A stretch of 36,725 nt of DNA from a virus, in IMG/VR virus record IMGVR_UViG_3300009784_000004; one strand, written 5' to 3'. The notes below the pieces were generated by a model that saw nothing but the letters and a program-made list of their open reading frames with translations, ran no database searches and was not told where the DNA came from. The translations under genes and the position numbers were made by a program. This document shows positions 6,322 through 36,686 of this stretch, piece by piece. Position 1 is the first letter of the stretch. Every line of letters starts with the position of its first letter.

Positions 6322-7994
6322 CAGCGACCTCTCAGAGGAGCGACGAGATCGTCGTAGCTCTCCGTGCGCTGCGTGACCGGCATCGTGTTACCCGTCAGTT
6401 TGCTTGTGGGCTCAACGCCTTGCGCACCTTGTTTGTAGCTCTGTTGTCCGCGCATCAAGCCGCGCGCCTCGCCCTGCATGCGATGCTCACGCATCATCAT
6501 CTCAGCGTGCCGCGCGAGCGCCTGCTGCTCGCGCACGAGTACAAATTCTGGCTTTCCCTGCACGCTCATGCTGCCGAGCGCATCGCCAATCGCAGGATCG
6601 TCTTTGGCAACGCGCGCGACGAGCTCTTTGTTTTCTTTGTCAATCTCGTGGAGCCGCTGAAAGTCGCCTCCAACAGACGACAGCTTTTTCGCCTCTTCGA
6701 TGTTTTTGGCTATCTGCCGAAGTGCATTCGTCTTTTGAAGTAGCTGCGATCCATCCTTATTCAGTTCGTTTGCAACACCTGCGTCCGGAGCAAAGCCGCC
6801 AAGCGTCGGAACATAGGACGTCGAGCGGTCTTTGCCGCCAGTACCAGGCACGCCGTACCTTTCGGCCATATCCACGGTCGCCTTGTCGTGCGTCAGTTGT
6901 GCGAAATTGTCCGCAGCTTTTGCGCGTTCATCATCGATGCTTGCAAGCATCGTCTGATAAGCTGCCTGGTTTTTTGCGTTGCGCGATTGCGCGTAGAGTG
7001 CGCCCAATTGGACTTTTGCATTATCCAAATACTGCGCCCGCGTGGCTGCCGCTGCGCGTTCGGGGTCGCCGAACGCAGCGAGGTTTTGCGCATAAAGATT
7101 CGTTCGTAGGTCGTACGCGTTTCTCGCCTTCGCGATGTTCGCCTTTTGAGCGTCGATGTTCGCGTCGACTGCCCGGTTGACGATTGACAATGCTGCGTTT
7201 TGGCCGCCCGTCAATGAGGCGCCAAACTGGCCAAGTCCGATTGCAAGAGCGGCGAGCACCTTGGCCGCGCCGCCCTGCTCTTTCCAATACGCATTCGGAT
7301 CGATCTTGGCATTTGCATCATTGGCGAGCTGCTCAAACCTGCCTTGTTCCTGTTGGATATACGCGTTTCTCTTTTGCGTGATTTGACTGCTCACCGCTTG
7401 CGCCTTCGCACTCGCGATGACGTCGGCCTGTGCCATCTGAGATTCAGCATCGGACTCGAGCTGGGAAGCGGCGTAAGTATTCTGTGCAGCTGCAACTCGA
7501 GCGGCAGACGCTCGAGCGCGAGCCTCTTCTCCTCGCGCGAGGTCCTCGGGATCGATCCCGTATTCGACTTTGCTCGAGCGCGTGCTTGGCGTCCACCGAG
7601 GTTTGCCGGTTGCGGGGAGCGACGCGGGGGCCGCTCGCTGCAGGTCGTCGAACGACATTGCGCTGGGGAATCCGTCACCCTCAGCCGGTCCTTGCACTGG
7701 AAGAGGGGCAGCCGCGGCCGCTTCAGGCGTTGCGGTTTTCTCTCCGAGAATGCGTTGCAGCCATGGCCTTGGAGCCCCTGCGAGTTGAAGCGATTGCAGC
7801 GGGTTTGGCCCCGCAGGTTGTGGCTGCGGAGAAGGAGCGACGGGAGGCGGATCGTCGAGCTCGATGGTCGGGTTAGCAGCCTGAAGCGGCAACGGTGGAG
7901 CAGCCGAAGGAACGGGCGATCCCGTGATGCTCGCCAGTCCCGCGAGCGTGCCGGGCGAAAGGTTGTATCGTGCACCCAATGATGCGAGGTTCAT
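6321..7994 (-). CDS. Internal virion / ejection-type protein (557 aa)
   Basis: Pro-rich N-terminus, long Ala/Gln-rich helical region and one hydrophobic segment (AAKVLAALAIGLGQFGASL). TGGAGG RBS and ATGA overlap with the upstream gene. Confidence 0.45.
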   Translation of the reverse strand: MNLASLGARYNLSPGTLAGLASITGSPVPSAAPPLPLQAANPTIELDDPPPVAPSPQPQPAGPNPLQSLQLAGAPRPWLQRILGEKTATPEAAAAAPLPVQGPAEGDGFPSAMSFDDLQRAAPASLPATGKPRWTPSTRSSKVEYGIDPEDLARGEEARARASAARVAAAQNTYAASQLESDAESQMAQADVIASAKAQAVSSQITQKRNAYIQQEQGRFEQLANDANAKIDPNAYWKEQGGAAKVLAALAIGLGQFGASLTGGQNAALSIVNRAVDANIDAQKANIAKARNAYDLRTNLYAQNLAAFGDPERAAAATRAQYLDNAKVQLGALYAQSRNAKNQAAYQTMLASIDDERAKAADNFAQLTHDKATVDMAERYGVPGTGGKDRSTSYVPTLGGFAPDAGVANELNKDGSQLLQKTNALRQIAKNIEEAKKLSSVGGDFQRLHEIDKENKELVARVAKDDPAIGDALGSMSVQGKPEFVLVREQQALARHAEMMMREHRMQGEARGLMRGQQSYKQGAQGVEPTSKLTGNTMPVTQRTESYDDLVAPLRGR

Positions 7995-10173: not shown

Positions 10174-13100
10174 TCACCCCTTCCTTTCTGCGGCTGGATG
10201 CTTGAATCCCTTCTTGGTCCCGACCTCGAGGCCAAAGGTTTCGAGCACGGGCCCCTTGCCCGTAGTGAGCACAAGTCCGTTCGACGGCGCCGAGTCCGAG
10301 AAACGGAAACGAATCTGCCTTGCCTTGCGGCGCGCCCCAATCATGACCTGGCAATGTTCAAGTTTTCCCGGCGATGTCACTGCCGAACCTGCTTCGAACG
10401 TGTGCGTCTGCGTGAATGCGTCCTCGCCGTCAAAGGCAATATCGACCGTGAGATCATGGTGGTCTTGCGACACCCCTTCGAGCACCAGTCGGCGCACCGA
10501 CTGGAACGAGAGCGGCGAAGACATGGTGGTAGGAACCGTGCCCGGGGCAACGTCGGCCGCTGCCGCGTCGTAATCCGTCGTCTCGATAACTATCGGGACG
10601 TAATGGGTATCATCCTGATTTGTCGTTTCTTCCTCCACGAGCACCGTGCCAAGCGGCGTCACGAGCGTGTACTGGTCCCGGTATATGCACGCGTCCGCGA
10701 ACGGGGTGCCGTAGACACCATCCGCCCAATACTTCGATGTTGCCCATTGGTTCTCGGCATAGTCCCAAACGAGAACCAGGCCACTTGTGCCGTCTGAGGT
10801 GTTGCACGTGAAGCGCACGTGGCTCGTGTTGGCACTCGCTACCAATACCGCGCTCGTCACGTCATGGTATTGTGCAAGTGTCTCGCGGACGGGGCGGCCA
10901 ACCCATGACACTTCGAGTGCGCGACTCAAAAGCTGAAGTCCTTTGGTCGACTGGAAGAGAACTCCTACGGGCGTGCTGATAACACTACGCGGATTGATGC
11001 ATCCTGCATCGGTTGGGATCTCGAACGGTCCCTGCAGATCGCTATTTTGCCCGTTCGCCGCCGGACCTTGACCGATGATGTACTGCATCCAATTCCGGCC
11101 AAAAACAACGAGTTTGTCGTCGAGCGAAGCGAGTGCGACAACCTCACGCTCGAAGGCAAACCGAAACGCTCCCGACGCAAACCCCGGCGCCGTCCCCTCA
11201 TCGTCGAGGAACGATTTGGTGAACCATACCTCGTGCCTCGAGCCGTCGACGATCCAAAGCCGGTTCATGTGCAAGGTCATCGTCGTTTGTGCCGGCGGTT
11301 GCTCGTCTGCCAAATCCCCGCCTTGCGTGTAGATTGCAGGCCTTTCCGCGAGCGCAATACCATTGCCGATATCCCCATCCGCAATCGTGTCAACGAGGTG
11401 AGAAAGCTGCGCGCTCCCGTCGTTGAGCACCATGTTGAAGGATGGCGGAATCGACAATTGTTGCGGGTTCGCCTGTCCCATAGGAGTTCGGTACGCCGTG
11501 AGGTAGTACCACCCCGATGGATCGACCGGCCCCTTGTTGCCGACCGTAATCGAATTTAGGTCAACCAGTGTCTGGTAGTTCGCGTTTGCAAGAGTAAACG
11601 GTTTGGAGAGGAGCGCTGGCGGGCTTCGGTATTTGAGTCCTGAAGCCGAATAGTATTCAGCCACAAAACCATAAACATAATCGCCCGCCTGCATGCTGCC
11701 GCCCGCCATGCCTTCTTTGATGTCGGCGATGGTTGGCTCGCGCGAAAAGCCGTAGTCGAAAACCTGCTGCCCGTCGTAGACAGACAGAAGCCCTCCCGTG
11801 ATGAATATCTCTCGGTTGTACGACACGACACGGTCCGCATCCTTTGGACGGTTTGCGCCCATCGTCACGGACAGCAGCCTGAGCCCGCACATCTGCGATT
11901 CGCTACGGTTCTGCGAGAGATCGAGCTGATATGGGATTAGCGAGACAGCTTCGGTCGGGAGAGTGCATGCATGAGGGGGGCGAGGAAATGGGCCGCCGGC
12001 GATAGAAGTGTCGATGCGGCCGACATAATGGTGTGTCCCGGTCGCGTCCGGCACTTGCTGCGTGGCTACCAGGAGATAAGAGTTTGGCGTTTGCGTGATC
12101 GCCTCTGTCGAGGAAAACGCATCAACTACGGCGAACGTCGGAGTTAGCCCGGTGTCGAGGATACCCGTGAGCGGAAGAACGTTCGCCGTGTGCGTTGGCG
12201 AGTACATGAATCCGTCTGGCGTGACGATGCATGTTGCGGTATACGGCGCGGAAGTGTCGGCATATCCAACCCATGCCGCGGACGTCTTAGCCACGATCGA
12301 GAAGGGTGTTGCCGGCACCGCATCAATCGTAATGGGGCCCGTAGCCTGAATGAGCGAAAGCGGATCATGTGTCGTCATCCGCACCGCGCTGCCGTTCGAG
12401 TACGCAACCCAAACCTGGCTCTCGTCTGCATCTACCACGGGAGACGAACATGCTGTGGCTTCGCCTGCGGCTGAAACCGTTCCAATCGACACGGGAGGGC
12501 CGCCGCCAAACGAATAGGAGAAGCGCTGCACCCTTACCAGGTGAGTCACAATATCGACGTACGCAACGATGAATCCACCAAGAGCTGGGCAAACGTCGAA
12601 GTCCAAGGCTCCAGAAATGAGAACGGAATCGGCCGGAAAGGACGGGTCGACATCAAGGGCGGAGGTGCTCACGGCGTTGACCAAGATGTTGCTTTCGGCG
12701 TGTGTCAACATGACTGCCGTCGTGGCATCGACGCTGGCCACGCGAACAACTCCCATCGAAATGCCGAAGCGGAACGGACCCGCGATTCTCGATTTCGAAG
12801 CGGTGTCGAAAATGCCAAGCCACGACAAGCCGAAACTAGAATTCGCTGCATCTCCGTCAATCCAGCCCACAACAAGGTGCGGGCCGCAGGCGGCTAGGTC
12901 TGCACACGCAACGCCGGCCGATGACGCAAGGATGGTATCCCATGTCAACCCTGGTTTTGGTCGGTATTCGACCAAAACCCATTGCTCAAGATTTGGCTCG
13001 TAAGCAAATACTTCTCCGGTCGGCGCAAGAAGAACGAGCTGGTCGCCGCGCGCTCCAATCCTCGACGCAGAAGGGATGGCCGTCGATCCACTCCCGGGCG

Positions 13101-19399: not shown

Positions 19400-20773
19400 T
19401 CAATACCATCCGCTCTCTTCGCGCTCGCGAAGTGCGCGCTCTTCTGCCTCGATAAGCGCGCGTTCTTCTTCTGCCGCGCGCTCTTGCGCCGACGGGGGCG
19501 GAGCGGCTGGGCGCTCATGGTACGCCGTCGTCGCGCGCCATCCGTAGAGCACGCCGTCTGCGCAGTGATTTTCGAACCCCTCGCACTCCGTGCTTTGGTC
19601 TTCATTCCACGGTAATTCAGACCATTCTCTGATCAACGACTTGCACGCGGGACGATAGACCTTGATTCGCCCGCGTTCCAAATCTCCGTTCAGGAGACTC
19701 TGATATCCACGCTTATTGTGCTTGTCCGCCGCCTCAATGGGCAGACTGAAGCGTGCGCGCGCCTCTTCGACGTAGCCTTTGCCAAGGCCTCCAATGTCGC
19801 CGACCATGCGAACAAACTTGTATTTTGCGTTCAATCGCTGCGTCTCTTCAGCCGCAAGCGATGGCGTCATCTTGCGCCGCTTGTAGCTCTCGACGACGTA
19901 CGCGACTGGATCGTTCTTGCGCCAACCGAGAACGCTGAAGCTGCACGAGTCTGTAAATCCGTAGTCTTGGCCGAGCAGATAGAATTCGAGCTCAGGCAAG
20001 ACGTCCGTGCCGTTGCGGACGTCATCGTACGAGTAGACGAGGCCACCAGGAACGATGGTCCAGTCGCCGTCACGCAAACGCCGGCGCGTGTCCTCGTCGA
20101 GCCGCTCGAGCGATTCGATGTATTTTGCACGGTCTAAGTGCGGATTGTCGTCGAGGCGCGCCGGAACGTAGACGCCCTTGCGTGTTGCCTCGTCGACGTA
20201 CCGGTGCTTGACCCATGCGTGCCCGATGCCGATCGGGTTCGAGGCACAGCGAAAGCGAATAGGCACGTCATTGTCGATGTTGCGCCGGAGCCGCGAGAGC
20301 AGAAACACCGCGGGACGCTCAGGCCACGTCGTGATTTCGTCGATGCCGATGAACTGGAATTCTGCCGACGAAAAGCGATCGACGTCTCGCGGAGATTGGC
20401 AATGTGCGAACGTGAGCGTTGCGCCAGAAGGAAAGGTGAATTTTTTGAGATCGGCATTCCAGTGCGCGCGCGTACCCGCAAGCCATTTCTGCGCGCGATC
20501 CATGATGGCGCCCTCGAGGGCGAGCTCGGGGTACGTTCGGCGCAGAATGAGTGCCGCGTAGCCTGGGACGTCCACGTATTGGAGCGCCGCCATCAGGAGC
20601 GCGTCGCTCTTACCTCCGCCTGCTGCACCGCCGTAGAGGGCCTCGAGGCAGTCGAGCGCGAGGAATTCGCGCTGCTTTTCCGTCGGCTCGTGAGGACAGA
20701 ACGGACGCGGCGAATAACGCGTAATCGTAGCTTCGGCACAGGCCTCGATGTCGGCGAGGTCAATCGGATCCAC
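19400..20773 (-). CDS. terL: Terminase large subunit (457 aa)
   Basis: Walker A-like GGAAGGGKSDA near the N-terminus, then ...FIGIDEITTW (Walker B-like), and a C-terminal nuclease-type region. Located directly upstream of the portal module. Confidence 0.85.
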   Translation of the reverse strand: MDPIDLADIEACAEATITRYSPRPFCPHEPTEKQREFLALDCLEALYGGAAGGGKSDALLMAALQYVDVPGYAALILRRTYPELALEGAIMDRAQKWLAGTRAHWNADLKKFTFPSGATLTFAHCQSPRDVDRFSSAEFQFIGIDEITTWPERPAVFLLSRLRRNIDNDVPIRFRCASNPIGIGHAWVKHRYVDEATRKGVYVPARLDDNPHLDRAKYIESLERLDEDTRRRLRDGDWTIVPGGLVYSYDDVRNGTDVLPELEFYLLGQDYGFTDSCSFSVLGWRKNDPVAYVVESYKRRKMTPSLAAEETQRLNAKYKFVRMVGDIGGLGKGYVEEARARFSLPIEAADKHNKRGYQSLLNGDLERGRIKVYRPACKSLIREWSELPWNEDQSTECEGFENHCADGVLYGWRATTAYHERPAAPPPSAQERAAEEERALIEAEERALREREESGWY

Positions 20774-23488: not shown

Positions 23489-23995
23489 TTAGCCGCCGTC
23501 CGGGCCATCGGCCGGAAGGGCAGCGAGGGCGGCGGCAATCTTCAACTGCGCGGCCAGTAGGCGCGCACGTTTGGTTGCTGGTGGCATAGCGTCCCATTGC
23601 GCCACCAGAACGGCGTGCTCCACTCGTATTGGGGCGTGTAGGCCCAAGAGCCTGTCCTGCTCCGCGACGGCAGCAACGGCTGTCCTGGTGTCGGGGGACA
23701 GGTAGAGCTCTCCCGTCTTCGAGTTCGGGAGCTCTCGTTTCAGTGCGACTGAAATTATGTGGTCAAGCCTCGCGCTGTTGCGGGCGATGAGCGACTCACG
23801 GTCTGCGGTAGCCATACCACGTAGCTGACGTTCGGCCTCTCGGACCCATCGCGCAACGGTGTCTTGGGTGACGCCGTGCTTGGCTTGCAGCTCGAGTGAC
23901 GTGGCGTAGCTCCACTTACATTCTGCGATATCGCGAGCAACCCCAGCAATAATCAGTTCATTGCTTGTCTCACTTTTGACTACCTTTTTCGACAT
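23489..23995 (-). CDS. HTH-containing protein (168 aa); small terminase subunit or late regulator candidate
   Basis: The N-terminal SLELQAKHGVTQDTVARWVREAERQL resembles the HTH of small terminases (Terminase_2-like). It is followed by a helical oligomerisation-like region. Confidence 0.45.
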   Translation of the reverse strand: MSKKVVKSETSNELIIAGVARDIAECKWSYATSLELQAKHGVTQDTVARWVREAERQLRGMATADRESLIARNSARLDHIISVALKRELPNSKTGELYLSPDTRTAVAAVAEQDRLLGLHAPIRVEHAVLVAQWDAMPPATKRARLLAAQLKIAAALAALPADGPDGG

Positions 23996-24003
23996 TTACA
24001 TAC

Positions 24004-24411
24004 CTATTGGCGTACGTAACTCACGTTGTAGGTACCAACACAACTTTCGCCGTCGCGAAGAGTGACGGTGAGAGTAACGGTACCTTCGATTACTGAACCG
24101 TCATCCGTAACCTGCGTCGTCACGCCGGTGCCCTTCGTCGTCGACCCATCAGGGTTCGTACATGTGAGCGTGCGTGCGTCCTGGCATTGATCGGCACTCC
24201 ACGCATCAGAAGTAACGACGCATCCAGGAGTCACGTCACTGGCTATCAGCGACGAAGGCACATCTCCGCACGTGCCAGAGAGCGTCGTAGCCGTCATTAA
24301 ATAGGTGCCCTGACGATCTGTCGGGGAACACAAGATAGGCGACGATCCATAACCTGAACTGCATGACACAAGAGAAACGAAGAGGACTGCGAGCATGAGG
24401 GAGGTCTTCAT
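24004..24411 (-). CDS. Secreted lipoprotein (135 aa), Cys-rich mature domain
   Basis: From the ATG at 24411: MKTSLMLAVLFVSLVS-C, a signal peptide with lipobox LVSC. The mature part has 8 more Cys and is Thr/Ser/Gly-rich. No SD sequence seen. Confidence 0.65.
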   Translation of the reverse strand: MKTSLMLAVLFVSLVSCSSGYGSSPILCSPTDRQGTYLMTATTLSGTCGDVPSSLIASDVTPGCVVTSDAWSADQCQDARTLTCTNPDGSTTKGTGVTTQVTDDGSVIEGTVTLTVTLRDGESCVGTYNVSYVRQ

Positions 24412-24435
24412 GGCAACACGATACTGCCGCGCTAT

Positions 24436-24723
24436 GCAGGTGATCACCAATTTTCATCACCGGCATAAAATTATCATTGATTTCAATAACTTAGGCCCAA
24501 ATGCAGGTGATCGCAGGTGATGTTGAGGGCAACCTTCGTGCGCGCCTGTGCGCGTACGCACGCGCGATCATTATATGCATTTTTCTTATTTTCACTTTTC
24601 CCTCCTTAGCATTGAAAACATCACCTGCATCACCTGCAGAATTGGTTATTTGCCTATAATATAGATGGATCATATGCAGGTGATGGTGCAGGTGATGCGC
24701 AGGTGATGCTGTGGATCACCTGC
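24436..24723. repeat. Iteron cluster: 9 exact copies of GCAGGTGAT/ATCACCTGC plus 1 degenerate copy, flanking an AT-rich core
   Basis: Forward copies start at 24436, 24503, 24513, 24676, 24688 and 24699. Reverse copies start at 24620, 24629 and 24715. A degenerate ATCACCgGC starts at 24456. The AT-rich stretch is about 24566-24619. Confidence 0.85.
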
Positions 24724-26342
24724 ACGACAACCCAAACGGCAGTGCGAGTGCGGTTGAGTTTTTGTTCGAGCTTGCATCCTACGACAATACGACCACGTAA
24801 TCTTCGAAGCGCGTAACCCAAGTCCTTCGAACTTGGCGCGCGTCCGGGTTGAACACGCGCGAGCTGCTCGATGGCCTCGCGCAGGTCGTCGTAACCGTCC
24901 GGAGGACCATCTGCGGGCGGACGCCCGCGGGGCCATAGGACGTCGATGGCCGTCTTGACCGAAATTCCCTCTGTACCCCCGAGCCGGCGCCAGTGCGTGT
25001 AGAGCGCCGCGATGGCCGAGCCGGTCAGGTCGCTCTCTGGCGTCGTTCGGCACGCCGACACGTCAGCGCCGCCGGCCCAGACGATGGCGCTCGTCACGAC
25101 CCGCGACCAGTCCTCGTAGCTGCCCCACTCGGCAGCCCCGCATGCTGGGCGACCAACAAGGGCGTGAGCTCGTAGGAGCGTGAGCGCCGCGCCGACGTAC
25201 TTCGGCCGCTCCACGAGAGCGTGCTCGGCGAGTCGGGGGAAGCGCCATCCTCCGCGCGTCTCGGGCGTCTCGGTCTGCGGCTCGATGCGCGAGAGGAGCG
25301 CGCGCCTCGTCGTGTCACCCTTGATTTGCACGTTGTTTCCACTCACGAGCATAACGGCGCGCCAAGGTAGATCGCGGCTCTGCGTCAGGCCGAGCACGCG
25401 CAGGCTCACCGCGTCGCTCGTGAGGTACTTGTCGATCGGAGCGCAACCAAAAGGTTGCGTTAGGTTGTCCCAGTGCACGATCGCGCGACCATCGAGCGCA
25501 TAGCTCGCGAGCATCTTCTCTGCCTCTTCTTCCTGCCTCGGGTACGTGCAGAGTGCAGCTATTCGACCTGTCGTAACGAGTGAGATCACCGCCGTCTGCA
25601 GCGACTTGCCCGAGCCCTGCACCGACGCGTCAAAGATGAACGCAGGGACGGGGCCGCGGATGGCAGGACGGCCGATGACTGAGAGGATGGCGGCGATGGG
25701 GACATCGCGCGAGGCCGGAGAAACGTAGGGGAAATCGACGAAGAGATCGCGCAAGAGTGCAAGCGCTTCGCGCGCGTCCTTCTCTGACGGCGCCGTCGAC
25801 AGCGGCACGTCAATGCGTGGACAATGCACGTACTTGGTTTGTGTGTCGTAGCCAGCTACGGTGTGCACAGATCCGTCCGGCCGGAGGATGGGCGTCTCAC
25901 TCACGCCGAGCAGAGGGCGAATGCCGGGATACTTCGCTCGAGCGCTTACCGCCTGCACGATCGCGTCGTTTGGAACGACGGCGCGGTAGCCTATTTTCTG
26001 ACCGCCCACGTCCTTCTCTTTGTCGTCCTTCGCGATCCACAGCGCCACGCGCGTGAGCCGCTCGCGCAGCGTTGCGAGCGGCAGAGCGCGAAGCCTCGAC
26101 ACCTCGCCGAGCTCGGTTTCGAGATCGAGCACCTCGGTGAGCTGCCCATCGCGCTGGTAGAGCGACGGCAGCGCCGAGAGCGCGTCGATCGCGTCGTCGA
26201 CCACGCGGTGTAGATCGACACCGACGCGAATCGTTGCTCGGATGCCGTCCTCGCCCGGCAGGTACGCGGACGGTCGCGCCGACTTATAGCCCGACGCACG
26301 CAGTACGTCGTTGAGCACGTCGCTCTGTCCGCTGTCAGCCAT
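24654..26342 (-). CDS. SF3 / P4-family replicative helicase-like ATPase (562 aa)
   Basis: Walker A in FIFDASVQGSGKSLQ and Walker B-like AIVHWDN. The N-terminal LYQRDGQLTEV ... GIRPLLGVSETPILRPDGSV...GYD pattern is typical of phage/plasmid primase-helicase (P4/D5-like) proteins. No primase motif recognised. Confidence 0.6.
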   Translation of the reverse strand: MADSGQSDVLNDVLRASGYKSARPSAYLPGEDGIRATIRVGVDLHRVVDDAIDALSALPSLYQRDGQLTEVLDLETELGEVSRLRALPLATLRERLTRVALWIAKDDKEKDVGGQKIGYRAVVPNDAIVQAVSARAKYPGIRPLLGVSETPILRPDGSVHTVAGYDTQTKYVHCPRIDVPLSTAPSEKDAREALALLRDLFVDFPYVSPASRDVPIAAILSVIGRPAIRGPVPAFIFDASVQGSGKSLQTAVISLVTTGRIAALCTYPRQEEEAEKMLASYALDGRAIVHWDNLTQPFGCAPIDKYLTSDAVSLRVLGLTQSRDLPWRAVMLVSGNNVQIKGDTTRRALLSRIEPQTETPETRGGWRFPRLAEHALVERPKYVGAALTLLRAHALVGRPACGAAEWGSYEDWSRVVTSAIVWAGGADVSACRTTPESDLTGSAIAALYTHWRRLGGTEGISVKTAIDVLWPRGRPPADGPPDGYDDLREAIEQLARVQPGRAPSSKDLGYALRRLRGRIVVGCKLEQKLNRTRTAVWVVVQVIHSITCASPAPSPAYDPSIL

Positions 26343-26625
26343 CGACCTTCACCGCTTCACCCTGCTGGCGCATCCACTCGATAGCTCGAGCGGGAAGGGG
26401 CGATGACGCGTCTTTGGCGAGTTTGCGAATAATATATATTCCTTGGCGTATATCTACTTTGTAGTTGATATATCCAATTCTCAGGGACGACTTGGCTTGT
26501 TCGAGCTGCCCCGAAAGAGCTATTACTCGATCAAGGAGCGTCTCGAGCTCGCGAGTTTCCTCTTCGATCTTGCTGCATAATGCAAGTATCGCAGCCTTCG
26601 CAATCTGCTCGTCTGTCGGTGTCAT
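26335..26625 (-). CDS. Hypothetical coiled-coil protein (96 aa)
   Basis: ATGA overlap with the upstream gene and an 8-nt overlap with the downstream gene. Confidence 0.5.
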   Translation of the reverse strand: MTPTDEQIAKAAILALCSKIEEETRELETLLDRVIALSGQLEQAKSSLRIGYINYKVDIRQGIYIIRKLAKDASSPLPARAIEWMRQQGEAVKVDG

Positions 26626-26960
26626 CTTGCCCTATCCACCGCTGCCAACGCCTCTTCGACGGTCGTCACGACGCACGCGACGCCACCAGAACGCTCGATG
26701 ATGCCGAGCCAAATCTGTTGCACTCGAGTGACTGTGTGCAACTTGTCTGGCCTCTTAACTTCGAGCGCCAAGAATCGTCCGTGCGGAGGAACGACGCATA
26801 TTAGGTCGGCAACGCCGATGCCTAATCCGGTGTGTAATTGCCTGTTGTCGACATGGTGTTTCCAGCAAGGAATGCATGCTTTGCCGAGCGCAATCCGAAT
26901 GTCCGTCTCAATGGCTCTTTCGGTACGCCTCTTTTCGGGTTTCCGGCGTCGGCCACTCAC
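26622..26960 (-). CDS. VRR-NUC domain nuclease; start uncertain (GTG 26960, or ATG 27023/27020)
   Basis: GIGVADLICVVPPHGRFLALEVKRPDKLHTVTRVQQIWLGIIERSGGVACVVTTVEEA matches the VRR-NUC pattern (G.pDl..., .EvK, Q..W, G....vv.s.eea). Any start overlaps the 3' end of the helicase gene. Confidence 0.65.
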   Translation of the reverse strand: MSGRRRKPEKRRTERAIETDIRIALGKACIPCWKHHVDNRQLHTGLGIGVADLICVVPPHGRFLALEVKRPDKLHTVTRVQQIWLGIIERSGGVACVVTTVEEALAAVDRAR

Positions 26961-28239
26961 CGTATGTGGCCTTGTACCGGTGCGACGCCGACCCGAGCTT
27001 GTAGCCTTTGATTCGTGCATCATGTATCCACCTCGCGAGGGACCAAATACGTTGTTCGTTCGTCTCGGTGCGCTTGCGGACGAAGCGATCGATCGGGAGA
27101 CCGAGCACGCGCGGAGCACGCTTACGGAGCTCGCCCTCGTAGCCACACGTGCATGGCGGCGCGTCTACGACGCCACCGCAAACAGGGCAGAATCGCACGT
27201 CCTGCGCGTCACGACGGCGGAGCGCTTTTCCTTCGAGCGACCAGCACCAGTCGTCCGTCGGCTCGCCTAGATCGTGCGTGCAGCCCGTCAGGTCGACGAC
27301 GATGCAATCGCTCTTACCGTCGCACGGCCGAAGTCCTCGACCTATCGCCTGCAGGAGAGGGACGGCAGAAGCGAAGCGGCGCGCGAGCACGATGGCGCTC
27401 GTACGCGGTGAGTCCCAGCCTTCAAGGAGGATTGAGTGATTGCAGAGTACATTGATGTCTCCCAGGTCGTACTGCGCGAGAACTTCAGCGCGCTCCCTCG
27501 ACGACATTCCGCTGTGAATTGCGGCGGCTCGACATCGTTCTCCGGTGCGCGTTGAGAGCTCGATCGCGAGTGTTTGCGCTTCCTCGACAGAGGAGCAGAA
27601 GACGATTGTGCTGCGCGGAATTCGCCTCCCATACGCAAAGCCGCCGAACACTCCACGATCGCCGAACACATCGATCGGATCTTGCGCGAGCTCGCCGGGA
27701 GCAAGCGCATGGTCGGGCCGGTAGATCTGTCCGTACGGCACGAGCCACCCCTCATCGATGGCTTGACGCGTCGTGAGCGGTTCGAACAAGGTGTCGAACA
27801 TCTGTTCGAGCCCTCGCCCGTCCCCACGTGCAGGTGTCGCGTCGAGGCCTAGCACCTTCGCCGTGGGGTATGCCTCACGCAGCTTGCTCCACTCGTCAGA
27901 GAGGTAGTGTCGCGCCTCGTCGAGGACAATAACGTCTGGCCTCCACTTTCCGCCGGACGAACTAGCGTCAATTAGATAATCGCACGCTTCAAGCAACTGA
28001 ATCGTCGCGACGCGCCAACGCTCGATGTCGCGACGCCTTACCCACTGATTAGCAATCTCTCTTCGGGGGGCAACAACGAGAACGTTCTTGTCTCCGTCTG
28101 CCATCCGGAAAGCGACGTGAATTCCCACCGTCGTCTTGCCCGTGCCAGTGGGCATGACGACAAGCACGCCTTTGGCGCCTCCGCGGAAGGCGGCGAGCGT
28201 CTCGCCGACGGCCGTCTGCTGGTATGGTCGGAGGGTCAC
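26908..28239 (-). CDS. SF2 DEAD/DEAH-box DNA helicase (443 aa) with a C-terminal zinc ribbon
   Basis: Motif I MPTGTGKT, motif II DEARH, motif III DATP, motif VI QAIGRGLR. C-terminal CPVCGG...CTC. GAGAGG RBS before the GTG at 28239. Confidence 0.85.
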   Translation of the reverse strand: MTLRPYQQTAVGETLAAFRGGAKGVLVVMPTGTGKTTVGIHVAFRMADGDKNVLVVAPRREIANQWVRRRDIERWRVATIQLLEACDYLIDASSSGGKWRPDVIVLDEARHYLSDEWSKLREAYPTAKVLGLDATPARGDGRGLEQMFDTLFEPLTTRQAIDEGWLVPYGQIYRPDHALAPGELAQDPIDVFGDRGVFGGFAYGRRIPRSTIVFCSSVEEAQTLAIELSTRTGERCRAAAIHSGMSSRERAEVLAQYDLGDINVLCNHSILLEGWDSPRTSAIVLARRFASAVPLLQAIGRGLRPCDGKSDCIVVDLTGCTHDLGEPTDDWCWSLEGKALRRRDAQDVRFCPVCGGVVDAPPCTCGYEGELRKRAPRVLGLPIDRFVRKRTETNEQRIWSLARWIHDARIKGYKLGSASHRYKATYGEWPTPETRKEAYRKSH

Positions 28240-31361: not shown

Positions 31362-31552
31362 TCCGCCGGCTCGAAACCAACGAGAGAAATTCTCGCCTCT
31401 ATGCAGGATGGTGCATGTCCCTCGCGCAGGCTGGGACGAGTGTTCCGCGCATCGACGTCGACATGTTGATTCGCGTCTTCGAGCTCGGCGAGACGTGGGC
31501 GTGTTGCGCCCAGAAATGGGCGAAAAGGAAAGGTAGGAAGTCATGGGACTAG
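31358..31552 (+). CDS. Hypothetical protein (64 aa)
   Basis: ATGA overlap with the upstream gene. Confidence 0.45.
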   Translation: MIRRLETNERNSRLYAGWCMSLAQAGTSVPRIDVDMLIRVFELGETWACCAQKWAKRKGRKSWD

Positions 31553-32580
31553 AGAGAAAAAAACTAAACGTACTCACGCATTCCAGCGTCGCGTGCTTTC
31601 GGCGCTGTCCGCGCGAGTACAAGTATCGCTACGTGATGCTGCGCCGAGTGCGTGCAGGAGACGAGGCGCCGGCGTTGAAGTTCGGCACTCTCATGCACGC
31701 GGCGATGGCGGAATGGTGGAAGCATCGGATAGGTGGTGCTGCGGGATGCGCTCTGGACATGGGCCTGCGCCCTCTCTGCGGACAGGGCGATCCGTACGAG
31801 CGCGCCAAGGCACAGGAGCTCCTCATTGCGTATGACGCGTATTGGGACGATTCGCCGCTGGGCACTCACCTGCACGTTATTGGTGTGCGAGTCGAGCAGG
31901 AATTCGCGGCGCCTATTCTATCCCCGCTCGGCAAGCCTTCTCTGCGTTATGTTTACGCCGGCAAGGTCGACGCGGTCGTGACCGCTCTTGTGCAACCCGA
32001 CCGACTCACGCAACTAGTCGTCGAGCATAAGACGACGAGTGAAGACCCGAGCCCAGAGACCCATTACTGGGAGATGGCGGCCGTGATGGATCCACAGGTC
32101 ACGGGATATCTCGACGCGTACCCCGGAGCCGAAATGCTCTACGATGTCATCCGCAAGGTAGATCTGCGGCCGGGGAAGGCCACCCCGGAAGACCGGCGCA
32201 AGTACCGCAAGGATGGCGGTCTCATCGCCTCGCAGCGTGCAGAAGATGAGACGCCAGAAGAGTATCAGGTGAGGGTGCGCGAGGAGATTAAGGGGCACCC
32301 CGAGAAGTATTTCCATCGAGGTAGGATCGTGAGGCTGTCTCGCGACTCGGCACAGCATCGAGCCGACCTATGGCTAACCTGTCTTCTCATCGATGACGCG
32401 TTGGAGGTGGATGGTTTCGTTCGCCACCCCCACTCATGTGTTCGTTATAGCAGGCTCTGCGAGTATTTCGACGTCTGCTCGGGACAGACATCAATCGACA
32501 GCGATGACCGATTCCGCACCGCGGATAGGCCGCACGAAGAGTTGAGTGCGGAGATAAGCGAGAAAGGAGAAGGCGCATGA
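31543..32580 (+). CDS. PD-(D/E)XK exonuclease, Cas4/RecB-family with Cys cluster (345 aa)
   Basis: GKVDAVV ... VVEHKTTS (D...ExK), then QVTGY (QxxxY). N-terminal Cys residues (ACFRRCPREY) plus C-terminal CVRYSRLCEYFDVC suggest an Fe-S cluster. AAAGGTAGGAAG RBS. Confidence 0.75.
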   Translation: MGLERKKLNVLTHSSVACFRRCPREYKYRYVMLRRVRAGDEAPALKFGTLMHAAMAEWWKHRIGGAAGCALDMGLRPLCGQGDPYERAKAQELLIAYDAYWDDSPLGTHLHVIGVRVEQEFAAPILSPLGKPSLRYVYAGKVDAVVTALVQPDRLTQLVVEHKTTSEDPSPETHYWEMAAVMDPQVTGYLDAYPGAEMLYDVIRKVDLRPGKATPEDRRKYRKDGGLIASQRAEDETPEEYQVRVREEIKGHPEKYFHRGRIVRLSRDSAQHRADLWLTCLLIDDALEVDGFVRHPHSCVRYSRLCEYFDVCSGQTSIDSDDRFRTADRPHEELSAEISEKGEGA

Positions 32581-32801
32581 AAGGCGAAGAATATCCCTCC
32601 GACGCCGAGATGTCGAAGGTAGAGGAATTGTTGAGCGGGACGGATGATCGCATAGGGTATATTCCTAGCGAATCTCCGGCCTACGACGAGCTTCACGCGG
32701 CAAGGCATGGATTGCAGTCCGCGCGCAAACATGCGCGACATGCGCGCAACATGATGTTTGCAGCGCGAGGAAGGCTGGGGGCGCGCTATGAAAACGCGTA
32801 A
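32577..32801 (+). CDS. Hypothetical protein (74 aa)
   Basis: ATGA overlap with the exonuclease stop. Confidence 0.45.
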   Translation: MKGEEYPSDAEMSKVEELLSGTDDRIGYIPSESPAYDELHAARHGLQSARKHARHARNMMFAARGRLGARYENA

Positions 32802-33768
32802 CACCTATGCGCCGGCCGAACGTCAGCGCATGCTGATATGCGGACCGCCCGGTGTCGGCAAGAGCACGCTCGCCGCGAGCTCGCCGAACCCCATCTTTTT
32901 GGCGGCGGAGAATGGGTTGCAGTACCTGCACGCGACAGCCTACGATCCTACCCCGCGGACGTACCACGACGTGCTCCGCGCGCTGCGAGAGATTGCGGAG
33001 GATTCCACGTTCGAGACCTTTGTTGTCGACACGCTCAATTGGGTGGAGCCCATAGTGTGGGCGCACGTCGGAACCCTCGGCAAAAAGATGGCCGTAGAAG
33101 ACTACGGCTACCAGGATGGCTACCGGATGGCGGCTCGAGAATTCCGGCCAATTCTCAAAGAGCTCGAGGCCATCAACGAGCGAAAGAACATCATCCTTCT
33201 CGCGCACGTACGAGTGCGGACGCGCAAGAATCCAGAGGGTGATGATTACGAGGCCATGGCCGTAAGCGTGCACGACTTGATTGGCGATCTCATCACGCAA
33301 TGGGTCAACGTGGTCGGCTACTTGACCACTGACGCAACAGTGGGCAAAGCCAAGGGAGACCGCGTCGCGAAAGCCACCGAGAGCGAGACGCGCATCTTGA
33401 GGATGCGTTCGCATCCTGCATACCCATCTAAGAGCAGACCTGATGCTCCGGAACGGATCGAGATTCCAAAGGATGGCGGATGGGATGCGATGATGCGGGC
33501 GCTCGGGAGCGAACTTCCAAAAGCGCCTCAGGGATCCACGTGTGAGGGTCCCGAGACGGAAAATGGGAGGATATATCGCGAGGCTCTCGAGATGCTCGCG
33601 GAACATCAGCGGGTAGCGAATCCAGAGTACAGGGGGTTTGTTGACCGGATGGCTCGATTTTTGGAGGCCCCTCAGAGCACGCTCTCTATTGAGCGGCTTC
33701 TTTCGGCAAAAGAGGCGTTATTCGACCCGGCCGCGTGGCTGGCAAAAGAAAGGACGGCACGACCATGA
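32788..33768 (+). CDS. RecA-fold ATPase, Sak4-like / AAA_24-type recombination protein (326 aa)
   Basis: Walker A LICGPPGVGKSTLA right after the N-terminus, Walker B FVVDTLN. Neighbours are an exonuclease and an SSB. Confidence 0.65.
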   Translation: MKTRNTYAPAERQRMLICGPPGVGKSTLAASSPNPIFLAAENGLQYLHATAYDPTPRTYHDVLRALREIAEDSTFETFVVDTLNWVEPIVWAHVGTLGKKMAVEDYGYQDGYRMAAREFRPILKELEAINERKNIILLAHVRVRTRKNPEGDDYEAMAVSVHDLIGDLITQWVNVVGYLTTDATVGKAKGDRVAKATESETRILRMRSHPAYPSKSRPDAPERIEIPKDGGWDAMMRALGSELPKAPQGSTCEGPETENGRIYREALEMLAEHQRVANPEYRGFVDRMARFLEAPQSTLSIERLLSAKEALFDPAAWLAKERTARP

Positions 33769-35463: not shown

Positions 35464-35835
35464 ATGACTCGTTATCTCCGCGCGAAAGACATCGCCGAGG
35501 ACCTCGGCGTTTCACTCGCGAGCGCATATCGCATCATGCGCGAGTGCACGCGACTGGTGGCCGGCAAGTCTGTGCGCGTGACCCATCAAGCATTTCACGC
35601 CTGGAAAGAGAGACACACGGAGGGCCCGTGCGAGACACCCTTTATTTGCGTGGCCGGATCTGGTGGTGCCTCGTCACCAACCCGAAAGGGGGTAGGAGCC
35701 TCCGCAGATCGACCCGCTGCCATGACCGAGTCGCTGCCCGCAAGCGGTGGCTCGAGCTCGAGCGCGCTGTCATCACGCAGGCCGATCGTCCCCCGGACTC
35801 GCCCACGCTTGCCTTCGTCCTCGACTGGCGCCTAA
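35464..35835 (+). CDS. Excisionase-like HTH_17/MerR-type DNA-binding protein; 3' end uncertain
   Basis: MTRYLRAKDIAEDLGVSLASAYRIMRECTRLVAGKSVRVTHQAFHAWKERH is a full excisionase-type winged HTH. The frame then stays open for about 70 more low-complexity codons, overlapping the integrase gene. Confidence 0.55.
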   Translation: MTRYLRAKDIAEDLGVSLASAYRIMRECTRLVAGKSVRVTHQAFHAWKERHTEGPCETPFICVAGSGGASSPTRKGVGASADRPAAMTESLPASGGSSSSALSSRRPIVPRTRPRLPSSSTGA

Positions 35836-36686
35836 GCGAGCGCGAGACGGCCGGAAAGAAGCCGGGCACGCTCAGCATGTACGGACAGAAAGGGAGACAC
35901 CTCGTGCGCCTCCTTGGCGCCGATACGCTGCTCTCGGACATCGGCGCGCAGCAGATCGACCAGTTCGCTGCCGAGCGGCTGAAGGAGGGTGCCGCCAGAA
36001 CGACGGTCCACAAAGAGCTCGTCACGCTGAGGGGCGCGTTGAAACTCGCGCGCCGCTACCGGCAGTATCCCTACGCGCTCGACGAGGTGATGCCCGAGTT
36101 TGCGATCGAGTATGTGCCGAAGGAGCGCGCGCTGCCGCTGCACGAGATCGCGCTGTTGCTCGGGACACTGCCGGCCAAGCGCTCGGCGCTGGTCGGCTTG
36201 CTCATTGCGACGGCGGCCACGTACCCGAGCGAGATCGATCGGCTGCGCAAGACCGACATTGACCTCGTCGCGGGCTACGTCAGGCTGCGAGGGACAAAGC
36301 GCACGACGCGAGATCGCCGCGTGCCCATCGTGGACTTCGCACGCCCATGGGTTGAGCGCGCGGTGGCTTATATGCCGTTCGAGAGGTGGACCAACGTGAG
36401 GCGAGATCTGCATGTCGCCTGCAAGCGGGTCGAGATCGAAGCGTGCTCGCCGAACGACTTACGCCGCACGATGTTGACCCTCCTGCGAGCTCACGGCGTG
36501 GAGCCGTCGTTGCTCGCGGTGTTCGCTGGCCATGCCGACTCCCGGATGGTCGAGAGGGTCTACGGACGCCTCGCGCCCGAGCAGCTCGCGAAACTGCTCG
36601 AGCAAAGACTCGCGTTCACAACCAGTGCACAGAGAGCAAAAAAGATGGTAAAAACATCGAGAAAACGAACGAATGCAGCGGACTGA
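35628..36686 (+). CDS. int: Tyrosine recombinase / phage integrase; start uncertain (GTG 35628 or ATG 35544)
   Basis: N-terminal LYLRGRIWW...RRSTRC arm-type motif. Core and catalytic regions: ...TYPSEIDRLRKTDID, NDLRRTMLTLL, FAGHADSRMVERVYGRL (R...LRR...H...Y). Adjacent to attR. Confidence 0.85.
   Translation: MRDTLYLRGRIWWCLVTNPKGGRSLRRSTRCHDRVAARKRWLELERAVITQADRPPDSPTLAFVLDWRLSERETAGKKPGTLSMYGQKGRHLVRLLGADTLLSDIGAQQIDQFAAERLKEGAARTTVHKELVTLRGALKLARRYRQYPYALDEVMPEFAIEYVPKERALPLHEIALLLGTLPAKRSALVGLLIATAATYPSEIDRLRKTDIDLVAGYVRLRGTKRTTRDRRVPIVDFARPWVERAVAYMPFERWTNVRRDLHVACKRVEIEACSPNDLRRTMLTLLRAHGVEPSLLAVFAGHADSRMVERVYGRLAPEQLAKLLEQRLAFTTSAQRAKKMVKTSRKRTNAAD

Follow-up and report, generated by a model that had tools for sequence, protein, structure and literature searches.

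A repeat array at the end of an SF3-type helicase gene is a probable replication origin of a Polyangiaceae prophage

What is the role of a dense cluster of short repeats that reaches into the 3′ end of a helicase-like gene in a prophage? The question is raised by a 36,725-nt viral sequence (IMG/VR record IMGVR_UViG_3300009784_000004; hereafter the window), in which all nine exact copies of the 9-mer GCAGGTGAT fall within 288 bp, at positions 24436–24723. An earlier, sequence-only reading of this stretch had proposed an origin made up of iterons and an AT-rich unwinding element, beside an initiator-helicase. We likewise consider it likely that 24436–24723 is the replication origin of the phage, loaded by its own 562-amino-acid (aa) initiator-helicase. 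The proposal has gained support from the superfamily 3 (SF3) fold predicted for this protein, the family-wide linkage of array and gene, the presence of the layout in plasmids and its likeness to the origins of staphylococcal pathogenicity islands (SaPIs).

A cluster of exact, convergent repeats

Six copies of GCAGGTGAT lie on the + strand (24436, 24503, 24513, 24676, 24688 and 24699) and three on the − strand (24620, 24629 and 24715), accompanied by a single 8/9 copy, GCCGGTGAT, at 24456–24464 (−); this recount reproduced the numbers first given. The rest of the window holds no further exact copy. The window sits on a 47.3-kb contig (sample ERZ27257292), where GCAGG(T/G)GAT was also absent from a further 5.9 kb on the right (host flank) and 0.6 kb on the left. 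Across the ~43 kb of contig sequence scanned in total, exact copies cluster solely at the array, which is the outcome of a motif scan that the sequence-only reading had suggested. Dinucleotide-preserving shuffles of the window gave a mean of 0.29 copies, matching the ~0.3 copies first expected by chance, with a maximum of 2, and none of 100 shuffles reached nine. With one mismatch allowed, 15 matches were found against 8.1 expected window-wide, that is, no enrichment; the non-random signal is the clustering of the exact copies.

The array consists of the last 70 nt of the helicase open reading frame (ORF) and the next 218 bp. The gene and the parts of the array are listed here in the direction of the gene:

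24654–26342, − strand: gene for the 562-aa protein, a predicted SF3 (D5/P4/SaPI-Rep-like) helicase and presumed initiator (AlphaFold2 and Foldseek)
24676–24723, no strand: auxiliary repeat cluster in the final 70 nt of the helicase ORF, with one − copy (24715–24723) and three + copies (24676, 24688 and 24699; spacing 12 and 11 bp)
24638–24675, no strand: AT-rich linker with the helicase stop codon (24654–24656), 38 bp, GC 0.26
24620–24637, − strand: core block 1, two contiguous GCAGGTGAT copies with a 9-bp period, facing the spacer (repeat and inverted-repeat search)
24571–24619, no strand: AT-rich half of the core spacer and candidate DNA-unwinding element, 49 bp, GC 0.29
24537–24570, no strand: GC-rich tract cgtgcgcgcctgtgcgcgtacgcacgcgcg (GC 0.74) that makes up the remaining half of the core spacer, purines and pyrimidines mostly alternating
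24503–24521, + strand: core block 2, two GCAGGTGAT copies with a 10-bp period, facing the spacer from the opposite side
24465–24502, no strand: AT-rich linker from the core to the distal pair, 38 bp, GC 0.24
24436–24464: distal pair, the 8/9 copy GCCGGTGAT (24456–24464, −), 11 bp, then an exact copy (24436–24444, +)

Four copies (24676, 24688, 24699 and 24715), and not three as first counted, fall in the final ~70 nt of the helicase ORF. In the gene direction this auxiliary cluster reads as one copy, a 7-bp gap and three inverted copies (24723–24676), and a relative, L240 (loci are given by our own numbers), also has a comparable upstream repeat cluster. The single ~55-bp AT-rich core described earlier exists as 24571–24619, where GC drops to 0.17 in the lowest 30-bp stretch and the − strand is ~71% purine, but it is one of three AT-rich segments, the others being the two linkers; GC over the whole window is 0.59.

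A 98-bp spacer separates the two core blocks. Beyond the 9-mer, the match between their innermost copies continues into a perfect inverted repeat of 12 nt, GCAGGTGATGTT, whose arms are 100% complementary and lie 92 nt apart. Because of the inverted repeats the core (24498–24642) is predicted, as single-stranded DNA, to form a stem of 22 bp capped by a ~98-nt loop (ΔG −36.4 kcal/mol, z = −6.2). An Rfam search gave no match near the gathering score. The exact distal copy (24436–24444) is embedded in a palindrome, GGTGATCACC. Repeat polarity relative to the gene was dropped as meaningless: the array shows an identical layout when read as its reverse complement, and information lies solely in the way the copies converge.

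Two compositional features were seen alongside. Five GATC sites fall in the 288-bp array (24442, 24509, 24566, 24668 and 24714; window average 5.2 per kb), a density in the top 2% of 288-bp segments, and three of them are a repeat followed by C. The tract at 24537–24570 is (CG)n-like and Z-DNA-prone, lies beside repeats and is paired in the window with a homopurine run; L064 has similar (CG)n tracts after its repeats (2338–2360 and 2401–2423), with a 33-nt homopyrimidine run. The idea that the window spacer is an inverted L064 spacer was dropped, as alignment scores lay within the shuffle range.

A predicted SF3 helicase missed by profile libraries

The sequence-only reading had called the 562-aa product an SF3 helicase. 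Sequence libraries gave no support for this: the protein has no Pfam, NCBIfam or PDB sequence match, either as a single sequence or as a profile (the PDB comparison used phmmer and profile searches), and no Pfam model matches the helicase part of any of 32 family members. A PHROGs match covers the C-terminal two-thirds of long ‘DNA polymerase/primase’ proteins. Structure prediction confirms the assignment at the level of a model. An AlphaFold2 model built with 32 homologues reached a predicted local distance difference test score (pLDDT) of 87.4, and its best Foldseek matches in the PDB (6lrb, 9ivf, 7pds, 7ola and 8apl) are all SF3 primase-helicases; the matched folds are NrS-1, African swine fever virus PrimPol, vaccinia D5, mpox E5, SaPI PriRep1 with double-stranded DNA (7pds) and SaPI5 PriRep5 (7ola). 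The Walker A GSGKS (G245, K246), Walker B (D292–N293) and motif C (N336–N337) residues are invariant across the 32 homologues.

A C-terminal domain of ~90 residues (approximately aa 455–541), modelled as helices followed by a β-hairpin (pLDDT 92.9), precedes a tail (aa 545–562) that is disordered in the model and encoded by the repeats. Primase-type Pfam domains are found in 7 of 32 relatives (five Prim-Pol, one PriCT_1 and one DnaG zinc ribbon), and none, primase or prim-pol, was recognised in the 562-aa protein itself.

Its sequence matches exactly that of a hypothetical protein from a Polyangiaceae metagenome-assembled genome (MAG). Comparison with 50,697 phage records by blastn and tblastn found no close relative, all matches being at most 31% identical. 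The helicase family is large, with 153 homologues below E = 1e-10 in one search. A locus search with the single 562-aa protein returned nothing, and homologous loci were found by an alignment-based scan.

The layout recurs at the 3′ end of homologous helicase genes

GCAGG(T/G)GAT was found in the same layout immediately after the stop codons of helicases 30–48% identical to that of the window, at loci L001, L240, L064, L209 (a Zavarzinella MAG, Planctomycetota) and L099. Searching these loci by tblastn with the 148- and 168-aa proteins encoded downstream of the array in the window revealed no homologue.

The layout was then scored as an exact 8-mer in tandem (9–12 bp) with an inverted copy 30–250 bp away, in 80 homologous loci with enough flanking sequence. 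It was present at the helicase 3′ end in 41 of the 80, a count that includes near-duplicate, and hence non-independent, loci (for example L292, L295, L296, L299 and L308), compared with 0/80 in-gene and 0/76 upstream controls. A stricter definition, with tandem pairs on both sides, retained 33/80 near the gene end versus 2 clusters in 478 kb of other sequence.

The median distance from the end of helicase homology to the first repeat is 36 bp. Spacers have a median length of 82 bp and a GC content of 0.47, as opposed to 0.64 for the locus, and were lower than the locus in 39/40 arrays; their sequences are unalignable between loci, which fits a compositional rather than a sequence-specific role. 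More than 20 repeat sequences occur among the loci, most with an RGTGR or GGGG core and with units of 8–10 bp in the relatives, often contiguous, and the G-rich repeat strand runs toward the spacer in most of them. Repeat divergence follows helicase divergence (Mantel r 0.26–0.31, p ~0.001). What lies beyond the array varies widely: the first large downstream ORFs form 32 unrelated clusters among 40 loci, including a ParB-methylase, the large terminase subunit (TerL; two cases) and a VWA-like protein.

The DNA architecture was also searched for on its own. The tandem pattern GCAGGTGAT-N0-3-GCAGGTGAT alone returned 236 loci, only three of them with a helicase homologue, and was rejected, the others appearing unrelated; adding the inverted copy made the search specific. 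In 241 million metagenome records the full architecture occurred at 31 loci, with one more from a scan of viral contigs. A helicase gene stands beside the array in 14 of these 32, and approximately seven more contigs end where the gene should be.

Plasmids carry the layout after homologous primase-helicase genes

All five plasmids inspected, from Psychrobacter, Methylobacterium and Saccharopolyspora, have the layout directly after a homologous primase-helicase gene, with convergent G-rich/C-rich short units around an AT-rich spacer:

pA32H2 (L319), ~6373–6520: array in a 6.5-kb plasmid with four annotated genes
pA17P3 (L320): array after the primase-helicase gene
pMNOD06 (L355): array after 8007
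pCM32 (L356), 11915–12111: array
pMt-1 (L357): array after 4659

In pA32H2, three copies of AGGTAGGGAT, a ~90-bp AT-rich spacer and three inverted copies occupy the plasmid's only long non-coding stretch, beside its only large (933-aa) ORF. These plasmid arrays are probably unannotated origins; nothing usable was found in the literature on pA32H2 or on the pCM32 origin.

Downstream genes and the packaging and operator alternatives

The plasmids and the varied downstream genes bear directly on an alternative raised by the sequence-only reading, namely that the array is a packaging (pac) site whose repeats are bound by the small terminase subunit (TerS) to start headful packaging. The idea has some support. 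In this phage lineage the array lies where the replication module meets the packaging module: a TerS-like helix-turn-helix (HTH) ORF follows the array in L240 and follows the lipoprotein ORF in the window, and TerL begins ~400 bp downstream of the array in L064 and L306. Because the packaging module follows the array in this lineage, a pac site keeps some weight. The array itself, however, is tightly coupled to the end of the helicase gene and not to any one of the 32 downstream ORF clusters, and it has the same layout after homologous genes in the five plasmids, with no packaging gene among the four annotated in pA32H2.

The terminase candidate in the window fits poorly as well. The 168-aa ORF (23489–23995, −) has an N-terminal HTH-like segment and no terminase family match in any library. 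TerS is normally encoded directly upstream of TerL, and here at least five ORFs separate the 168-aa ORF from TerL. Among the loci with identical repeats its only similarity is to the ORF directly after the array in L240 (3514–4098), a weak pairwise BLASTP match over the C-terminal 50 aa (E = 5e-7). The 168-aa protein is a candidate small terminase or late regulator, and we rate a pac site as very unlikely.

An operator is the other alternative suggested by position: the array would serve transcription only, for the lipoprotein and late genes or in early-operon termination, with no role in replication. It separates two same-strand gene modules, and the distal pair (24436–24464) lies 25–55 bp upstream of the ATG (24411) of the putative lipoprotein ORF. 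No sigma-70-like promoter was found in 23900–24900, and of the terminator-like matches two are the repeats of the array themselves, an artefact, with a third at 24046–24059. The architecture is conserved with the helicase gene and with no downstream gene, no candidate regulator gene co-occurs with it, and it is present in the 6.5-kb pA32H2 in the non-coding stretch described above. An exclusively transcriptional role is therefore highly improbable in our judgement. Plasmid iterons often double as operators, and for the distal pair an extra operator role besides the proposed one in the origin is possible.

The putative lipoprotein ORF (24004–24411, −) directly follows the array, has a clear lipoprotein signal, MKTSLMLAVLFVSLVSC, lies in a region of lower GC (~0.52–0.60) and gave no family match. 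One possibility is that it is a moron, acquired between the array and the TerS-like gene. The contig gene caller skipped this ORF and called a 52-aa ORF (24501–24659, +) across the array.

Similar arrays without a helicase gene

The same architecture search brought up approximately ten metagenome loci (L324, L325, which is L340 reversed, L326, L331, L334, L341, L342, L346, L348 and possibly L332) with near-identical arrays among chromosomal genes and no helicase gene for kilobases around. They are built as TAGCAGGGAT-GCAGGGGAT-GCAGGGGAT, a hypervariable 55–90-bp spacer and then the inverse, ATCCCCTGC-ATCCCCTGC-ATCCCTGC. L331, a contig of 4.4 kb, has two such arrays (1554–1679 and 2738–2858), at a distance of 1.2 kb. 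The contigs have a GC content of 0.61–0.72, and the arrays are intergenic among housekeeping genes (a radical-SAM enzyme, a NusB-like gene, a response regulator); L340 was assigned to Phycisphaerae by its radical-SAM protein. Several of these orphan arrays start at or beside TAG, which in L348 resembles the stop codon of the upstream ORF.

The orphan arrays look like a REPIN- or MITE-like dispersed repeat, and they raise the possibility that the array of the window is itself a selfish hairpin of this kind that landed by chance after a helicase gene. Position argues otherwise. Across the helicase family the site is fixed while the repeat sequence varies (>20 sequences), and independent insertions of different mobile repeats at one fixed site are implausible. 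There is no second copy of the array in the ~43 kb of contig, host flank included, and the terminus typical of the orphan class is absent from 2.9 million viral contigs. A dispersed repeat is the least probable of the explanations that we considered for the window. Given the family-specific position and the absence of another copy on the contig, the origin reading is not undermined by the orphan arrays; absence of the motif from host genomes cannot be assumed in general.

A different possibility concerns the orphans themselves. They might be derived from origins and still bind the SF3 initiators of phages or plasmids, either as chromosomal decoys or as hitch-hiking mini-origins that spread by using the initiator. 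We regard this as unlikely. If the decoy version were true, orphan arrays would titrate an invading initiator and amount to a natural, origin-based resistance.

The prophage and its host

The element is a temperate phage integrated in a Polyangiaceae genome. Recognised phage genes encode TerL (19400–20773), a portal protein, a VRR-NUC nuclease, a DEAD/SNF2-type helicase, a PD-(D/E)XK nuclease, an AAA_24 ATPase and a tyrosine integrase (35628–36686) that marks the right prophage end. Beyond the integrase (L354 15240–21038) come genes that do not look like phage genes and presumably belong to the host, among them those for a Ser/Thr protein kinase and a GNAT acetyltransferase. A replication/recombination module at 26622–28239 (−) and 31543–33768 (+) comprises the VRR-NUC nuclease, a DEAD/ResIII helicase, the PD-(D/E)XK nuclease and the AAA_24 ATPase. 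Among the ORFs of the window that were scanned, none was recognisable as a primase or DNA polymerase, and the contig gene table lists neither from 21.5 kb to the integrase; in many relatives of the window helicase, a Prim-Pol or DnaG-type primase domain is part of the same protein.

Discussion

The design seen here is already known from SaPIs, P4 and pRN1; what is new is a helicase family missed by profile libraries. In SaPIs, the origin lies immediately downstream of rep, with at least two oppositely oriented iterons on each side of an AT-rich centre (PMC9371898), and the SF3 ‘self-loading’ Rep helicase needs no ATP to bind these iterons, which it does through its C-terminal winged helix (PMC9371898). 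The window resembles this arrangement in the predicted SF3 initiator fold (7pds, 7ola), in the place of the putative origin directly after the ORF and in having at least two opposed repeats on each side of an AT-rich centre (24620–24637 on the − strand, 24503–24521 on the + strand); in both families, repeat specificity differs between elements. The likeness to Rep is at the level of fold only, with no sequence homology. SaPI repeats measure 5–6 bp, whereas those of the window measure 9–10 bp and are contiguous, a descriptive rather than a mechanistic criterion. The window spacer also contains a GC-rich alternating tract, and extra repeat clusters reach into the ORF. Finally, a SaPI is a satellite, while the element in the window is a tailed prophage that is complete, with genes for terminase, portal and integrase, and in which no adjacent primase gene was found.

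The archaeal pRN1 offers a second parallel. A ~100-nt stem-loop 54 bp downstream of its prim-pol/SF3/winged-helix gene orf904 is required for replication (PMC4234260). This element has ~21-nt arms and a ~58-nt loop, its structure being conserved and its sequence poorly so, and the Bordetella phages BPP-1/BIP-1 are grouped with it; the authors stress that the origin lacks an iteron structure (PMC4234260). The window likewise has a ~100-nt inverted-repeat element a few tens of bp after a presumed replication gene (22-bp stem, ~98-nt loop), and several relatives of its helicase carry the same Prim-Pol N-terminal domain. In contrast to pRN1, the arms in the window are built of tandem 9-mers and the protein lacks a prim-pol domain.

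The SF3 helicase-initiator of P4, alpha, binds short repeats (‘type I iterons’) through a C-terminal winged helix; it includes a Toprim primase and depends on two repeat clusters, ori and crr, that lie several kb from each other, whereas the window has a single 288-bp cluster and no recognised primase domain. SV40 large T antigen and papillomavirus E1 assemble two SF3 hexamers on inverted short repeats flanking easily melted DNA. These eukaryotic viruses differ from the window in using pentanucleotide repeats and an N-terminal origin-binding domain of a different fold. Iteron plasmids have ~17–22-bp direct repeats in helical phase, on which a WH1–WH2 Rep recruits host DnaB. Their initiator (RepA/Pi/TrfA) sites lie beside an AT-rich unwinding element, near the initiator gene (PMC4980987). 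The window differs from them in its 9-bp contiguous, convergent repeats and in that the presumed initiator would itself be the helicase.

From these parallels we infer how replication might start at the array. The 562-aa SF3 helicase would recognise the 9-bp repeats, most likely through its C-terminal helix/β-hairpin domain, a proposal modelled on SaPI Rep, P4 alpha and pRN1 ORF904. Protomers on the convergent blocks (24620–24637 and 24503–24521) would build two hexamers, one to either side of the 98-bp spacer, within which the 49-bp stretch of 29% GC (24571–24619) would melt first. The two rings would then separate in the 3′→5′ direction and recruit host priming and polymerase functions. The flanking clusters (24676–24723 and 24436–24464) may act as auxiliary loading or titration sites, and perhaps as operators for the downstream ORF.

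Several observations weigh against this interpretation, besides the near-duplicates within the 41/80 count and the packaging genes that follow the array. Approximately half of the homologous loci have no detectable array at the helicase 3′ end. In two of them the array is displaced, lying at +1.1 kb in L003 (6684–6857) and upstream of the helicase gene in L241 (~1534). Submitted to Foldseek in isolation, the C-terminal domain gave no significant match (best E 0.56, with weak winged-helix-type matches); for that reason its winged-helix identity and DNA-binding role are unproven, and ‘winged helix’ is a plausible label for a modelled domain. No sub-region of the helicase was convincingly extra-conserved among loci sharing GCAGGTGAT (ratios ≤1.3), and in a Mantel test by region no part of the protein co-varied with repeat type above the rest. 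The GC skew of the window turns (minimum) at ~29 kb, where gene orientation switches, and not at the array; skew was set aside as uninformative, its minimum being the gene-strand switch. Orphan arrays share the 9-mer unit and a convergent 3+3 layout with the helicase-linked arrays and, since near-identical arrays exist without a helicase, motif and architecture are not exclusive to helicase-linked origins.

One of the displaced arrays has a visible local context. In L003, a Sorangium prophage, three copies of AGGTTGGGC and, across the spacer, three of TGCCCCACC lie ~1 kb after the helicase gene, with an opposite-strand two-gene cassette (PadR and a 141-aa ORF) in between. The origin module can be displaced.

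With the origin reading as the likely one, the locus provides a concrete candidate for both origin and initiator in a myxobacterial (Polyangiaceae) prophage, a group for which, to our knowledge, few replicons and genetic tools are available. It would also assign a function to a large helicase family that profile libraries do not recognise. As the presumed cognate DNA site lies beside the gene, the family would supply dozens of natural initiator/repeat pairs for studies of how SF3 specificity changes. Finally, the array would unite two descriptions in the literature, the ‘iteron’ origin of SaPIs and the ‘stem-loop’ origin of pRN1, in a single layout.

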